Of a stretch of 64,000 bases of DNA, positions 21,192 to 29,087 are shown one piece after another. Made by a program: the position numbers and the translations under genes. A model generated the notes under the pieces. The model saw only the letters and a list, made by a program, of their open reading frames with translations, was not told the origin of the DNA and did no database searches. Position 1 is the first letter of the stretch, and each line of letters begins with the position of its first letter. Source of the stretch: Alphaproteobacteria bacterium (GTDB lineage Bacteria; Pseudomonadota; Alphaproteobacteria; Micavibrionales; Micavibrionaceae); contig JAJFGV010000008.1 in NCBI GenBank assembly GCA_021775965.1, positions 4,662 through 68,661 of the forward strand. Reading direction: 5' to 3'.

Positions 21192-23657
21192 ATGAAATAT
21201 CTCTGGTATGCATTTTTGGGACTGTTTTCGCTGGGCTGCCTTGGCTTGATTGCCGGCATTGTTGGCTTCGTTTATATCATTAGTTATTACGGTCAGGACC
21301 TTCCCGATTATTCTCAGCTTAAGGACTATCAGCCGCCGATTGTCACGCGTCTTTATGCCGGTGACGGACGATTGATGACCGAGTTCGCGCAGGAAAAGCG
21401 GGTTTTTGTGCCAATTGATGCCGTGCCGGATCTGGTTAAAAATGCTTTTATTGCTGCCGAGGATAAGAATTTTTATACGCATGAAGGTGTGGATTTTTTA
21501 GCGGTCATGCGGGCGGCTCTTAGCAATGTAAAAAATATGGGCACGGGGCGTAGACCAAAAGGGGCTTCAACCATCACGCAACAGGTGGCAAAGAACTTTC
21601 TGCTGACCAATGAAGTCTCTTATGAGCGGAAAATCAAGGAAGCTATTCTGGCCTATCGTATTGAGCGGGCGCTTACGAAAGAGCGCTTGCTTGAACTTTA
21701 TATGAACGAAATTTATCTGGGTCTTAACTCATATGGCGTGGCGGCGGCGGCGCTTAATTATTTCAACAAATCATTGGAGGAACTGGAGCTGCACGAAGCG
21801 GCGTTTCTCGCGGCTTTGCCGAAGGCACCGAATAACTATCATCCGGTGCGCAAGCATGATGCGGCGCTCACGCGGCGCAACTGGGTGCTGACGCGGATGC
21901 TTGAAGATGGCTATATCACCAGAGCAAAGGCCGATCTTGCGAAGCTGGCACAGCTAAAAATGTCAGAGGATCAGGACCCAGGCATTACCAATGCTGATTA
22001 TTTTGCCGAGGAAGTGCGCCGGGAGCTGAAAGACCGTTATGGTGAGGAAGCCCTTTACGGCGGCGGTCTGGTGACGCGGACAAGCATTGATCCGAAAATG
22101 CAGGACATTGCCATCCGTGTTTTGCGCGAAGGGTTGATGGCATATGACCGTCGTCACGGATGGCGCGGCCCGGTAACGCATATCAAGGATGCTGAGGACT
22201 GGCAGGTGAAATTGCGCAATTACGGCCGGCCTGAATCATTGCTGCCTGAATGGGACATGGCGGTGGTTCTTAAGGTTGAAAACGTCAAAGCCGAAATTGG
22301 TTTTGTCGGTGGTGGTCGTGAGAATTTGCCGCTCAAAGGTGTTGCCTGGGCGCGTAAATGTCTGAGCGATTGTTATGCGCTGGGGCCTGAAATTATTCGG
22401 ATGGACCAGGTTGTTAAAACCGGCGATGTGATTATGGTCGAAAAAGTTCCTGCCAAAGATGCAGAAGGCAACGAAACAAAAGAAAGCACATATGAGCTGC
22501 AGCAAGTGCCGAACATTCAGGGCTCTATTATTGCGCTTGATCCACATACGGGCCGTGTGCTGGCGATGCAGGGTGGCTGGCGTTATGATTCCAGTGAGTT
22601 TAACCGCGCCACACAAGCGCAGCGCCAGCCCGGTTCGGCTTTTAAGCCGTTTGTTTATCTGGCTGCGCTGGAAAACGGGTTTACGCCGGCAACGCTTGTG
22701 CTTGATGCGCCTTTCGTGATTGAGGATCGTCCGGGTAATATCTGGAAGCCAACCAATTATTCCAATGATTTTTATGGCCCGACGCCCATTCGTGTTGGCG
22801 TAGAAAAATCACGGAACCTGATGACGGTGCGCCTGGCTGATTATATCGGCATGGAAAAAATATCTGATTATGCGGAGCGCTATGGTATTACCGATGACAT
22901 GCCGCCGCTATTGGCCAATGCACTCGGTTCGGGCGAGACGACGTTGCTACAGTTAACCGCGGCTTACGCAATGTTGGTCAATGGCGGTAAAAAAGTAACG
23001 CCGACTTTTATTGACCGTATCCAGGATCGTCGTGGTCTGACCGTGTTTAAACATGACAAGCGACCTTGTGAGGGTTGTGGTCATTTGGTGCGTTGGGAAG
23101 ATCAGGATGTTCCTGATGTTCCTGATATTCGTGAGCAGCTGGCCGATCCGAAAACATCATACCAGATTGTTTCAATCCTTGAAGGTGTGGTCCAACGCGG
23201 TACTGGCGTTCGTATTAAATCACTGGGAAGGACGCTGGCGGGCAAGACGGGCACGACGAATGAATCCAAAGATACATGGTTTATTGGTTTTTCCCCTGAT
23301 TTGGTGGTTGGCGTTTTCGCTGGTTTTGACGATCCTAAATCTTTGGGAAAACGTGAGACAGGGTCATCGGTTTCTGTGCCGATTTTTAAAGCCTTTATGG
23401 AAGCAGCGCTGGAAGGGCAGCCGCCTTCGCCATTTAGAATTCCGCCCGGCATCAAGCAGGTGCAAATTAATGCTGCGACCGGTGTGCGCGCTCGCCCGGG
23501 TGATCAGCGTGTGATCTGGGAGGCGTTTGTGGCTGGCAGCGAACCAACGGAAGAGATGTTTATTCTTGATGGGCGCGGTATCAACACCGTGCCGGAATCG
23601 ACCGGCAATGACAACGTCGGTGAATCGGCAACGACCGGCACGGGTGGAATTTATTAA
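21192..23657 (+). CDS. mrcA: penicillin-binding protein 1A (bifunctional transglycosylase/transpeptidase)
   Basis: AEDKNFYTHEGVD and RKIKE GT51 motifs; SAFKPF (SxxK) and KTGTT transpeptidase motifs. Confidence 0.95.
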   Translation: MKYLWYAFLGLFSLGCLGLIAGIVGFVYIISYYGQDLPDYSQLKDYQPPIVTRLYAGDGRLMTEFAQEKRVFVPIDAVPDLVKNAFIAAEDKNFYTHEGVDFLAVMRAALSNVKNMGTGRRPKGASTITQQVAKNFLLTNEVSYERKIKEAILAYRIERALTKERLLELYMNEIYLGLNSYGVAAAALNYFNKSLEELELHEAAFLAALPKAPNNYHPVRKHDAALTRRNWVLTRMLEDGYITRAKADLAKLAQLKMSEDQDPGITNADYFAEEVRRELKDRYGEEALYGGGLVTRTSIDPKMQDIAIRVLREGLMAYDRRHGWRGPVTHIKDAEDWQVKLRNYGRPESLLPEWDMAVVLKVENVKAEIGFVGGGRENLPLKGVAWARKCLSDCYALGPEIIRMDQVVKTGDVIMVEKVPAKDAEGNETKESTYELQQVPNIQGSIIALDPHTGRVLAMQGGWRYDSSEFNRATQAQRQPGSAFKPFVYLAALENGFTPATLVLDAPFVIEDRPGNIWKPTNYSNDFYGPTPIRVGVEKSRNLMTVRLADYIGMEKISDYAERYGITDDMPPLLANALGSGETTLLQLTAAYAMLVNGGKKVTPTFIDRIQDRRGLTVFKHDKRPCEGCGHLVRWEDQDVPDVPDIREQLADPKTSYQIVSILEGVVQRGTGVRIKSLGRTLAGKTGTTNESKDTWFIGFSPDLVVGVFAGFDDPKSLGKRETGSSVSVPIFKAFMEAALEGQPPSPFRIPPGIKQVQINAATGVRARPGDQRVIWEAFVAGSEPTEEMFILDGRGINTVPESTGNDNVGESATTGTGGIY

Positions 23658-23674
23658 TTTTATTTACCGAGATT

Positions 23675-23695
23675 AATGGAGCGAGTGAAGAGATT
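23675..23695. repeat. distal att repeat (copy of the tRNA-Gly 3' end)
   Basis: AATGGAGCGAGTGAAGAGATT is identical to 34977-34997. Confidence 0.9.
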
Positions 23696-23808
23696 GGGCT
23701 TCGCCCCTTGTCCTTACTCTACACTTTGTTCCGAGAAGGCCGGATTTCCTATACTTTCACAGATACTTACGTCTTAACGCATAATACCTATAACCTCTCA
23801 AATTATAG

Positions 23809-23833
23809 CATTGCAGTAGCACTCGCAGTAGCA
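23809..23833. repeat. 25-bp arm repeat, left copy (tandem GCAGTAGCA motif)
   Basis: CATTGCAGTAGCACTCGCAGTAGCA is identical to 34877-34901. Internally it is a tandem 12-bp motif, GCAGTAGCACTC then GCAGTAGCA. Confidence 0.85.
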
Positions 23834-24077
23834 CTAATTGAAAAAATATGGAGTCACCTGCCGGATTCGAGCTCAGGGTATGAAGCCATATTCAGAAGGG
23901 GGGGTAGGAAGAATTGGGGGTGGTCGGTTTGTTAAGATAAGGCCTGCTGGAATTTTTAGTGTATTTTTCAGAATAATTATTTTCTTAAAAGCTTGCGCCG
24001 GCAATGCTATTTTAGGTAAGACTCACTTATAAGTTGAAAAACGTAACTAGCCTAGCTTTTTCGGACGGAGAAAAATT

Positions 24078-25943
24078 ATGAGTTTCGATATAAACAAATT
24101 CAAAGCAGAAAAACATTTAAGCAATAGGTATGCAAAAAGAATTCAGGCCTTAAAAGATAAAGGTAGGCAAACAGACTGCATAGAAAAGACCGTTAATGAA
24201 TCTGTGGAAAACATTCAGGGTAGCGGGCGCTCATTCATAGTTTATGGGGAACCCCAAAGCGGTAAGACAGAAATGATGATTGCCCTTACAGCCAAGCTGC
24301 TGGATGAGGGGCACAAAATAATTATTCATCTGCTGAATGACAATGTTTCTCTTTTGGAACAAAACTTATTAAGATTTCAACAGTCGGGACTTTCTCCTGC
24401 TCCATACAATTTTCTAGAAATCATGGATCCTGTTATTGAGATTGGGGATAAGGAATGGGTGATCTTCTGTAAGAAAAATGGGAGCAACCTTAGAAAACTT
24501 ATAGAAAAAGTAGGTCATATAGGTGGCAAGATCATTATTGATGATGAGGCGGATTATGCTTCCCCTAATGCAAAAATAAATAAGGAGGGGGAAAAAACAC
24601 CGATAAACGAACTGATTGAAACTCTTTTAAAAAATGGAGGCACATACGTTGGTGTCACAGCAACGCCGGCAAGGCTTAATCTAAATAGTACGTTTGAAAA
24701 TGACCATACGAAATGGGTGGATTTTCTCCCTCATAGTAAATACACAGGTCAAGACACATTTTTTCCCATCACACATAGCTGTGAATTTGGTATGACGTTT
24801 GTTCCAGATGGTGCTGGTGACGATCCTAAATGGTGCCGTAATGCCTTGTTTGGTTTTATGGTGAATGTCGCATATTTAAATTTGCATCCTGAGATACATG
24901 GAGAAGAAAACTATAGCTTTCTTGTTCATACAAGCGGGAAGAAGGCAGACCATAAGATTGATTATCAAACCATACAAAAAGTGTTTGGTACTTTGTCGGA
25001 CACAAGCGACAAGAATTTTGCTAAGTACGTTGAAAAAGTGTGGGCATTAGCTAATAAGCGTTATCCCGGCGAGGCGGATAAGATTACAGATTATATTTTA
25101 GAGAACATAGGACGCCGGAATACTGTTGTTATGAACAGCGCTAAAGAGTTTGAAAAAAATCACAAAAGTGCCACTTCTCCTTCAACGATCTTTACTATTG
25201 TCATCGGTGGTAATATCGTTTCCAGAGGTATGACCTTTGATAATCTTCTGTCAATGTATTTTACTCGTGACGTTAAGCATAAAATTCAGCAGGATACTTA
25301 TATCCAGCGAGCGCGTATGTTTGGTACCCGCGATTACCTCCCTTATTTCGAGCTTACAATTCCCGAGAACCTCTATTTAGACTGGCATAGGTGTTTTATC
25401 TTTCATAGGCTTGCCCTTGCGGCCGTCCGTGCTGGAAACGCACCCGTATGGCTGGAAAGTAAGAGAATTTCTGCTGCAGCATCTGCGAGTGTGGACAAAT
25501 TGAATGTTTCTATAGATGCAGGTGAGATGAGCTACGGCATTTTTGATTACAATGGCGTTAAGACGGATGCAGAAGGCATAGTGAGTTCGGAAGACAGTAA
25601 TATTTCTAAACTAGAAAAGCTGCAGAGTTTGTTGGGAGAGGAGAATTTCCCCGCATACGTGCTCTCCTATATTCGAGAATTTAGTCCGCAGGGCGATAAT
25701 TCAATTACGCTTCATTCCTCACATTCCATTGCGAATATGCACGATGCTGATCAGCAAAACATCAGTCGTAAAAGAGGTTTTATGGGTGGTGCTAATTTCT
25801 CAAAGAACTCACCGGTAGCACATCATTTAAGGATTTCTCACAATGCGATAGGGCAGGCTCGTTTGTTCTATAAGTATAACGGCAGCATAAAGTTCCTGAA
25901 AAATTTCAAGACCATCAAAGGGCCGAAAGAAAAAGCTGCGTGA
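24078..25943 (+). CDS. Z1-domain NTPase (SF2-helicase-like), putative restriction/defence component
   Basis: GEPQSGKT Walker A, IIIDDEADYASP DEAD-like box, GVTATPAR motif III. Then IVSRGMTFDNLLSMYFTR...DTYIQRARMFGTRDY, which matches the remembered Z1 pattern (SRGLTLEGL..SYF.R....DTL.QMGRWFGYR). Confidence 0.7.
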   Translation: MSFDINKFKAEKHLSNRYAKRIQALKDKGRQTDCIEKTVNESVENIQGSGRSFIVYGEPQSGKTEMMIALTAKLLDEGHKIIIHLLNDNVSLLEQNLLRFQQSGLSPAPYNFLEIMDPVIEIGDKEWVIFCKKNGSNLRKLIEKVGHIGGKIIIDDEADYASPNAKINKEGEKTPINELIETLLKNGGTYVGVTATPARLNLNSTFENDHTKWVDFLPHSKYTGQDTFFPITHSCEFGMTFVPDGAGDDPKWCRNALFGFMVNVAYLNLHPEIHGEENYSFLVHTSGKKADHKIDYQTIQKVFGTLSDTSDKNFAKYVEKVWALANKRYPGEADKITDYILENIGRRNTVVMNSAKEFEKNHKSATSPSTIFTIVIGGNIVSRGMTFDNLLSMYFTRDVKHKIQQDTYIQRARMFGTRDYLPYFELTIPENLYLDWHRCFIFHRLALAAVRAGNAPVWLESKRISAAASASVDKLNVSIDAGEMSYGIFDYNGVKTDAEGIVSSEDSNISKLEKLQSLLGEENFPAYVLSYIREFSPQGDNSITLHSSHSIANMHDADQQNISRKRGFMGGANFSKNSPVAHHLRISHNAIGQARLFYKYNGSIKFLKNFKTIKGPKEKAA

Positions 25944-26461
25944 CAAAGGAATTTGAACAATACCACGGTGTCGTATTTTCGCGCTTGTTGCACGCTTCTC
26001 CTGAACCTTTGTGTTTTAAATTTTATCCAACAAAAAGCAACTCATCTTACGTAATCAATGATGTGGCAGGCCTCTATATCAAACATTCTACGAAGCGCGT
26101 CTCACCGTGGCGGTTCACTTTTTCTAAAGCTCACCAAGATGAGATTTTTGAAATGTATGAAACGTTCGGAGAAGTCTTTGCGGCCTTTGTTTGTCACCAT
26201 GATGGTGTCGCCGTTCTCAATTTCGAAGAATTAAAGCAAATACTTGATGAAAACCATGAAGATTCTGAGTGGGTCAGCGTGGCAAGACGCCGGCGGGGCC
26301 AGTACACTGTCGCAGGTACAGATGGAAAATTAAGTTTTAAAATTACCCAAAAAACTTGCCCCGATAAAATTCTTGAATATTTAGCGGTTAATTCGCAAAA
26401 GTCTGGACAATCTCGTAGCGCATCCTTTTTCCCAAAGACTCTTTCTTTCCTTTCGGGATAG
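25940..26461 (+). CDS. hypothetical protein translationally coupled to the Z1 gene
   Basis: GTGA start/stop overlap with the Z1 ORF, 173 aa. No motif recognised. The 3' end overlaps the convergent methyltransferase by 74 bp. Confidence 0.5.
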   Translation: MTKEFEQYHGVVFSRLLHASPEPLCFKFYPTKSNSSYVINDVAGLYIKHSTKRVSPWRFTFSKAHQDEIFEMYETFGEVFAAFVCHHDGVAVLNFEELKQILDENHEDSEWVSVARRRRGQYTVAGTDGKLSFKITQKTCPDKILEYLAVNSQKSGQSRSASFFPKTLSFLSG

Positions 26462-27575
26462 GCAGGTATCTTCTGTTTTCAGGCAATTCGCGCTTTTGGG
26501 AATCAATAAGATTCAAGTCGAAAATGCTTCCTGCACGCTCAAATATTTTTGAATTCTCAATATAGGTTCCTTGCAAACAAGAATTACCTACAACAAAGAC
26601 TGCCTTCCCTTTTTTGTTAAGAACCCTTGAAACTTCAGACATAAGGCCGATAGCATCACCAATATAACGCTCTATCATTTTAATCTGCCTTTTGGGTAGG
26701 CTTTCTTCCGTCACTATCTCTTCCCTAATTTCTTTTATAATATCATCGTTTTTGCACTTCTCTTTTGCCTTTTCTGCTCCAACAGAAATAGATCGGATAC
26801 CTCGAATTTCAGGAATCGTATACCCAAACCACACCAGCGAAAATTTATGGCCCCTAAGATAGTCTATTGCATTAAGGTATGGGGGAGACGTTATAACAGC
26901 ATCTATTGATTTATCTTTTATGCTGTCCAAAAATCGGGCATCACCAAGTGAGACGTTTGCTTTTCCAATTTCTTTACCTTCGAACGAAAGCTGTTTAACC
27001 AATTTTTCAACGGAGCTTTTATATCCTGCGAATACATCATAATCATTTTCCTCTCTAACTTTGTGCGGTCGACTGTGTGATATATCCCACGCTAAAGAAG
27101 CCCCAACTTTTTTTGTGATAATGATGCGGCTCAACGCTAACTTCAAAGCATCAACTATTTCACGATCTTTGCCTTGTTTTTCGTACTTGTGCAGGAAGTA
27201 TGCAATTTTTTTAAGGTCTCTCTTTTGGGGGTTACTAAACCAAAAATCTATGAATTCTCTTGTTTCTTTATCTTTATCAATCCAAGGCAGCTCAATATCG
27301 CTTAACCGGGCATTGGACGCGTTTGTTATTAATCGGTCAAACTTCTTTTCAAGTTTCTCTAGGTCAATTTTACGTGTCCATACGTTTGAAATAAGAACAG
27401 CCAGAGGATCGAGATCATAACCATAAGCATCATGACCTTGCATAACCGCTTCTCTCAAAACTGTTCCCGATCCTGTCATGGGATCAAGAACTTTAGCACC
27501 ACTAGGTAAATCGGATATTGCCTTTAAAGCTATTTCAGGTGCCATACGGGCAGGAAAGGGGTGAATTGCGCGCAT
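26388..27575 (-). CDS. DNA methyltransferase (N4-cytosine or N6-adenine; SPPY motif IV)
   Basis: HPFPARMAPE N-terminus, VLDPMTGSGT AdoMet motif I at aa 29-38, ITSPPYLNAIDY motif IV at aa ~229-240. Confidence 0.85.
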   Translation of the reverse strand: MRAIHPFPARMAPEIALKAISDLPSGAKVLDPMTGSGTVLREAVMQGHDAYGYDLDPLAVLISNVWTRKIDLEKLEKKFDRLITNASNARLSDIELPWIDKDKETREFIDFWFSNPQKRDLKKIAYFLHKYEKQGKDREIVDALKLALSRIIITKKVGASLAWDISHSRPHKVREENDYDVFAGYKSSVEKLVKQLSFEGKEIGKANVSLGDARFLDSIKDKSIDAVITSPPYLNAIDYLRGHKFSLVWFGYTIPEIRGIRSISVGAEKAKEKCKNDDIIKEIREEIVTEESLPKRQIKMIERYIGDAIGLMSEVSRVLNKKGKAVFVVGNSCLQGTYIENSKIFERAGSIFDLNLIDSQKRELPENRRYLPIPKGKKESLGKRMRYEIVQTFAN

Positions 27576-28480
27576 TTAAAATTTCCGTGTCAACTACAGA
27601 TGGTATTGACACTAGCAAAACCAACAGTTCGTTGAAAGCTTGTTTATTGATTAAGTCTTTATTTTTATGAGGATTTTGTAGAGAAATGACAAAACTACAT
27701 AAACACTACATCACACTCCATATAGGTAAGACCAATAAACCAAGGAAAACGGGGGAAATAGCCATATATAAGGGCTATATAACTACGATCCTGCCAAACA
27801 CGCAGTGTATTTTTGTCCATTCAAAGGCTCTTGGGTGGCCCCATCCATAATGTTTTACCGAAATCGCCCTAAGACTGTATGTGTAAACAGTTAGAAGCTT
27901 GTCGGTCAGGCTTTATGGAGTAAGTATAATTTTAAGAGTAAGAAGGAAAAGTAAACAGCAGTAAATGGTTTTTTTGTTTTGTTATTTTTAGTTTTACTTC
28001 CCCATTCACCCCCCATCACCTAGGGAGACACAGATTTATTCCCCCCCTAAGAAACTAAGAATAAAAAATAGATACACTGGTAGTATATCTTTCTTAGTCC
28101 CTTAAAGGGGAGGTATGATTGTTTGTGTGTCTTCACCTGAGGGCTTTACACATCATCTAGTAATTGAATCTCAAACGGCTAAGGGCAGTGACCATTATTC
28201 CCTGTCCATCGATTCAGTATCCACTGTCACGGTTACAATTATAAATAATTGAGCATACTTAGGAGCCATTACTAGCGACCCATAAGCATCCAAAGTTGTT
28301 ACGCCTAGAACATTGCTTTGGTTCTTTTCATTCCTGTGATCTTGTTCTTTTGAGGGGTGGTGGTCTATGGCTAGTAACTTAAGCTCTTAACCCACCGATC
28401 TTTGTTTAAACAGGCTACTGCCCTCTGTTTTATTGAACTATTTAACTTCTATTACGTCTATTATACAGCATTCAATCTGG

Positions 28481-28545
28481 CTATACCAAACCCACGAAAT
28501 GTGAATATGGCCCGTTTGGTATAGGGGCTGTGAACTTGGTATAAT
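28481..28545 (+). promoter_or_regulatory. candidate promoter with overlapping inverted-repeat operator upstream of the AlpA-like gene
   Basis: CTATACCAAAC (28481-28491) and GTTTGGTATAG (28514-28524) form a perfect 11-bp inverted repeat. A third TTGGTATA half-site overlaps a perfect TATAAT at 28540-28545. TTGGTA at 28516-28521 gives an 18-bp spacer. Confidence 0.45.
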
Positions 28546-28611
28546 ATAGGTAAATTCAATTGATTTTACGCATAGTAACGCAAATAAGCGCTAGAAAGGC
28601 GCTCTAATATC

Positions 28612-28845
28612 ATGGACAAAAAAGAAGTCTCTCAAAACAAAATGAAGCTGCTAAACGATCACTCACTTGCAGAGCTATTGGACGTATCAGTGGCATGGGT
28701 TCGCCTACAAAAGCACCTCAGGAAGTATGGCAAAGAGCACTCTCTCGGTGTTGATCCTATTCTCATCGGTAAAACCAGACGCTACAGGTTATCCGATGTA
28801 GAAGCGTGGTTGGCTAAACAGGAGCATGAACAGGCTGCTAATTAA
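28612..28845 (+). CDS. AlpA/excisionase-family (MerR-like) helix-turn-helix protein
   Basis: 77 aa. LLNDHSLAELLDVSVAWVR...RRYRLSDVEAWL matches the pattern of prophage AlpA/Xis DNA-binding proteins. Confidence 0.7.
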   Translation: MDKKEVSQNKMKLLNDHSLAELLDVSVAWVRLQKHLRKYGKEHSLGVDPILIGKTRRYRLSDVEAWLAKQEHEQAAN

Positions 28846-29087
28846 GTGCCCTTTCCTGACTCGCAGAAGGTCACTGCGTCCAGTTTAATTCCATAATGGT
28901 AGTGGGGTAGCCTTGAAAAAAGAACGAGTCACCGAGCTTCCACGGGCAAAGAAGAGTCACTTTTATTTCTGAGGAATAACAACGAGAAACCACTAAAAAC
29001 AAACAGCATTCTAAAGTGGTCTTGGTAAGGGTATTGAGGAATTTAATTATATATTAGGGAGGTAGTAAATGAATAGTTGATTTGGTA

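Follow-up and report, generated by a model that had tools for sequence, protein, structure and literature searches.

A motor gene, a small-protein gene and an amino-methyltransferase gene as a candidate restriction-modification module of the CglI/NgoAVII kind in an alphaproteobacterial integrative island

A compact group of three genes, encoding a motor protein, a small protein and a DNA methyltransferase, lies in a 64,000-nucleotide stretch of a Micavibrionaceae genome (Alphaproteobacteria; assembly GCA_021775965.1, contig JAJFGV010000008.1, positions 4,662 to 68,661; hereafter the window), and it raises the question of what such a module does when none of its products is an obvious nuclease. 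A preliminary description read it as an atypical restriction or defence module; the observations behind that reading were confirmed in our analysis, and the interpretation is partly supported. We propose that the module is probably a motor-driven restriction-modification (R-M) system of the CglI/NgoAVII kind, with a small subunit of restriction-endonuclease (RE)-type fold and an amino-methylase as replacements. This proposal is built on the observed gene structure, motor hallmarks and obligate linkage of the motor and small genes, and on the fold obtained by modelling. The module comprises the following features.

24067..24070, + strand: GGAG ribosome-binding site, 7 nt 5' of the motor-gene ATG (read from the sequence)
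24078..25943, + strand: motor gene, 621 aa (open reading frame (ORF) calling)
25940..25943, + strand: GTGA start/stop overlap between the motor and small genes, coupling them (read from the sequence)
25940..26461, + strand: small gene, 173 aa, GTG start (ORF calling)
26388..26461, both strands: convergent overlap of the small and methylase genes, 74 bp, defined by their stop codons
26388..27575, - strand: amino-methyltransferase gene (N6A or N4C), 395 aa (PADLOC MTase_II, Pfam, motif positions)

ORF calling returned exactly the three frames of the preliminary description, and its structural claims held: the junction GCGTGACAAAG shows the motor gene's TGA stop overlapping the small gene's GTG start, the 3' ends of the small and methylase genes overlap by 74 bp, and the quoted motor motifs (GEPQSGKT, DDEAD, TATP, SRGMTF and QRARMFG) and the spacing of about 190 residues between methylase motif I and the SPPY motif IV were all located. 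The neighbourhoods of relatives were collected by exact look-up of homologues and by scanning one genome per species, which gave 48 loci, with genes assigned by ORF calling and phmmer. All three genes are complete in 45 loci. The motor and small genes overlap by 4 nt in 30 of these 45 and by 8 nt in 8, and they are never separated by more than 2 nt, while an N6/N4-type methylase gene lies inside the operon or beside it. The ATP-dependent R-M systems CglI, NgoAVII and BceSIV consist of M, R and H/N subunits (PMC4267653, PMC5737866, PMC5861437), and the trio of methylase, motor and small partner resembles this composition; in all 45 loci the motor gene overlaps or abuts the small gene.

The motor protein can be divided as follows, the boundaries of the first two segments being approximate.

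24195..24827, + strand: N-core (DEAD) RecA-like domain, residues ~40-250 (motif definitions from PMC5861437)
24837..25502, + strand: segment between the N-core and the C-terminal domain, with the DThhQXuRhFG signature (PMC2292703) and the H/H and QxxR motifs (PMC5861437)
25503..25940, + strand: C-terminal domain of no known fold, residues ~476-621 (~145 residues)

The N-core holds Walker A (GEPQSGKT, 57-64), Walker B (DDEAD, 155-159) and motif III (TATP, 194-197), followed by SRGMTF (382-387) and QRARMFG (410-416). Three features tie this protein to the CglI motor: Walker A has Gln in place of Gly, motif VI is of the QxxR type (Q410-R-A-R413 within DTYIQRARMFG), and an H/H motif is formed by H284 and H292 in HTSGKKADH, near-invariant among 43 homologues; the counterparts in H.CglI are Q405/R408 and H282/H290 (PMC5861437). 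The alignment to the PADLOC helicase model is limited to residues 22-435. Membership of the MzaC/Mza/MADS group was considered and rejected, as the matches were local and below threshold (NCBIfam MzaC, 39.4 bits against a cut-off of 1500 and confined to motifs V-VI; PADLOC MzaC, E 3e-9, local only). In the C-terminal domain, E483, H546, R564, H582, H583, N589, R595 and Y598 are invariant among the 43 homologues and D480 is nearly so, and the core of its AlphaFold2 model is confident. The domain was also considered as a hidden nuclease, but neither Foldseek on this model nor a search of PDB sequences returned a credible match; a PLD-like HxK reading of its HHLRISHN was rejected because the window protein has Arg for the Lys and because the spacing differs.

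The small protein, judged by library searches, is a member of an undescribed family. No match was obtained in Pfam, NCBIfam or PADLOC, or among PDB sequences by phmmer and profile; its sole library match is phrog_28860 (E 6.6e-9), to which no function is assigned there, and a Pfam search of 67 diverse family members gave scattered single weak matches, one of them to RecU (E 0.0036). It is nevertheless a real family, mostly 145-160 aa in length: there are 39 close homologues, and a library clustered at 50% identity yielded 976 representatives with E<=1e-3. Across the 67 members, K48 and W57 are invariant, G10, R53, P56, D88, G89, R116, Y122 and G126 are near-invariant, and E6 is Glu in 46%. Two variants are longer: a 313-aa Bacillota form (L056, 8001-8942, and P0199) bears a Cys/His-rich C-terminal extension that has no Pfam match, and in a Pacearchaeota metagenome-assembled genome (MAG; DAOSDI010000008.1, L013, 4113-5198) the small domain is fused in frame to ~200 further residues, which match the Pfam HD domain at a borderline level (E 1.6e-4); no other fetched locus has a fusion of this kind.

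An AlphaFold model of the small protein, calculated from its alignment (pLDDT 85.8, pTM 0.79), gives the core (residues 1 to ~148) a predicted Hjc/RecU-like fold of the restriction-endonuclease type. Among PDB structures, Foldseek ranks seven Hjc chains first, followed by RecU, Cas4 (SSO0001), PvuII and tRNA-splicing endonuclease, and its top matches in the viral library BFVD are again Hjc/RecU-type proteins. Residues 1-101 form a helix, four strands, a helix, two strands and a helix, an order that we take to be that of the Hjc structure as well. With archaeal Hjc and bacterial RecU, which are Holliday-junction resolvases, and with small dimeric Type II enzymes such as PvuII, the small protein further shares its size (120-160 aa) and a conserved Lys on the third strand, K48 occupying the site of the ExK lysine. 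It differs from them in lacking sequence or profile similarity and conserved metal-binding Glu/Asp residues, and in possessing an additional three-stranded C-terminal sub-domain (residues ~105-150) and an obligate link to a motor gene. Given these structural matches and the incomplete catalytic signature, the protein probably has a restriction-endonuclease-like fold but, as its residues indicate, is not a canonical PD-(D/E)XK enzyme. The earlier remark that it has no recognisable nuclease motif stands at the level of sequence, where Pfam, NCBIfam, PADLOC and the PDB gave no match, yet the model is Hjc/RecU-like; the modelling that had been suggested in search of a cryptic nuclease fold points, on modest matches, to a probable RE-type fold without the canonical catalytic acids.

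The third gene, by its motifs, is that of a Type II amino-methyltransferase, N6A or N4C. Motifs I (DPMTGSGT, 31-38) and IV (SPPY, 230-233) follow each other in the alpha-type order; several PADLOC Type II models match at full length, the best being MTase_II (E 3.9e-30, residues 2-374), and Pfam N6_N4_Mtase/UPF0020 models match at motif I only. Among the relatives there are two methylase sequence types, 27% identical to each other, which have been exchanged between loci.

The module thus departs from the CglI-type systems in two of its subunits. Their R subunit is a 358-aa PLD nuclease with a B3 DNA-binding domain, whereas the partner in the window has a core of ~150 aa with an Hjc/RecU-like model, and their methylase is a C5-cytosine enzyme, whereas that of the window is an SPPY amino-methyltransferase. 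Several results weigh against placing the module among these systems with a small nuclease. No relation could be detected between the C-domains of the motor and of H.CglI: the profile of the 43 homologues, run against PDB sequences, gave no hit for the domain, with 6F1S not reached at E<=10, and 6F1S is also absent among the 50 Foldseek matches listed for the domain (to E ~0.3). The structural matches of the small protein are modest (best E 1.7e-3 in the PDB and 4e-4 in BFVD, TM 0.4-0.55, rmsd (root-mean-square deviation) ~6 A), and hhalign found no similarity between the small-family profile and a three-sequence Hjc alignment, so the catalytic residues cannot be mapped by sequence. Across the 67 members the PD-(D/E)XK acids are not conserved: the position two before K48 is Y, F or L, and no Asp is conserved on the strand before that of K48. 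The described NRE partner, in contrast, has classical E-D-ExK motifs. Finally, whether or not two loci share a methylase type makes little difference to the similarity of their small proteins (51-55%) or of their motors (61-64%), so the exchange of methylases offers no clear basis for matched specificity.

The main alternative, which we consider possible but doubtful, is that the small protein has an RE fold but no catalytic activity, and that it serves in target recognition or loading or senses the unmethylated site. Damage would then come from the motor C-domain, the most plausible source, or from genes found in extended variants, such as that of the GHKL ATPase. The missing E-D-ExK acids speak for such a role, as does the mostly basic or aromatic character of the conserved residues (K48, R53, W57, R116 and Y122), which fits nucleic-acid binding, although K48 stands at the position of the catalytic lysine. 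The motor C-domain, confidently modelled and of no known fold, offers invariant polar residues (E483, H546, H582-H583 and N589) and the near-invariant D480. However, a distant pair of genes in Calothrix combines a different motor C-domain with a retained small partner, which indicates that the C-domain is not the constant effector, and the C-domain of H.CglI binds DNA and is non-catalytic (PMC5861437). As for additional genes, a paraMORC-like HATPase_c_3 protein is present in 9 of the 48 scan loci and some loci add further genes without assigned function, but most contain nothing beyond methylase, motor and small protein; a GHKL ATPase is lacking in most loci and in the window, where tblastn revealed no trace of it or of the accessory genes of relatives. 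The Pacearchaeota fusion, with its weak HD-domain match, also favours this alternative, but it is a single case.

The convergent overlap had been suggested to permit antisense or convergent-transcription control of the toxic side. This suggestion did not hold up well, and we regard it as rather unlikely that the overlap is a regulatory device that balances the toxic side against the methylase by transcriptional interference or antisense RNA. An overlap of 74-102 bp is indeed kept in the clade of the window (L005, L006, L008 and L046), and one of 80 bp is found in L007. Elsewhere, however, the methylase gene lies mostly upstream on the same strand and in a few loci is divergent, convergence being limited to the window's clade and a few others. 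Moreover, residues 150-173 of the small protein, which fall wholly inside the overlap, form a non-conserved, dispensable and disordered tail of low model confidence. The other strand encodes the C-terminal methylase motif RYLPxP...L..RMRxE, which is conserved also in loci where the genes do not overlap; the apparent conservation of the tail within the clade is accounted for by this motif. Promoter and terminator scans of 23600-28700 gave signals at chance level only. Antisense control would at best be specific to the clade of the window.

The genomic setting of the module is that of mobile cargo. G+C content falls from ~0.49 in the flanks to 0.38-0.43 across 24-34 kb, and the region contains the following features.

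23675..23695, + strand: 21-bp direct repeat, distal attachment (att) site, an exact copy of 34977-34997 (0 expected by chance)
28612-28845, + strand: HTH_17 (AlpA-like) gene
29088-30569, - strand: 493-aa phrog_4756 protein, no assigned function
32044-32247, + strand: XRE-type helix-turn-helix gene
32604-32990, - strand: 128-aa ORF with a non-significant N-terminal match (E 0.086) to a group I intron (GIY-YIG-type) endonuclease model
33518-34909, - strand: tyrosine integrase with DUF6538 N-terminus, adjoining the tRNA gene (Phage_integrase E 1.2e-14)
34977..34997, + strand: 21-bp direct repeat at the 3' end of tRNA-Gly(GCC), exact
34979-35053, - strand: tRNA-Gly(GCC)

The exact att repeats, the tRNA 3' end and the adjoining integrase show that the module forms the distal cargo on an integrative island of 11.3 kb (23675-34997) in tRNA-Gly(GCC), which also carries a putative lipoprotein gene and other small ORFs. 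Between the methylase and the HTH_17 gene, ~1 kb (27576-28611) contains no ORF longer than 54 aa and no Rfam family; it was considered as the remains of a GHKL ATPase gene or of another accessory gene, but the accessory proteins of L001 and L002 had no tblastn match there, and the interval could be a regulatory or replication region of the island. The most similar islands are alphaproteobacterial, as in Micavibrio aeruginosavorus (L008), where the same trio closes an island of similar make-up that includes genes for an integrase, an HTH_17 protein and a primase.

The scan found the module in Proteobacteria, Bacteroidota, Nitrospirota, Verrucomicrobiota, Planctomycetota, Chloroflexota, Bacillota, several phyla of the candidate phyla radiation and a Pacearchaeota MAG, and a relative occurs on 1 of 2.9 million viral contigs. 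In L006 (9718-16522) a relative adjoins genes for a T5orf172/MUG113 protein and an MmeI-like Type IIL enzyme, and in Berkiella (L009, 4636-5955) another adjoins AbiEi/AbiEii genes and a Schlafen/AlbA_2-HATPase_c_4 protein; both settings are consistent with location in a defence island. A function other than defence is unlikely, its chance being very slim: the module sits on an integrative island, its nuclease activity is putative and the GHKL/MutL-like partners of some variants recall mismatch-repair logic (PMC2292703), but many loci that carry the trio have neither integrase nor island genes, the trio passes between phyla as a unit, its nearest characterised relatives are restriction enzymes (PMC4267653), and the neighbours in L006 and L009 (MmeI-like, T5orf172, AbiE) are other defence genes.

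If the module is the motor-driven R-M system that we propose, a small RE-fold subunit would stand in for the PLD-B3 R subunit, and an amino-methylase for the C5 methylase. The motor and the small protein would form a complex in which the motor translocates, and the small subunit would recognise and cut unmethylated DNA.
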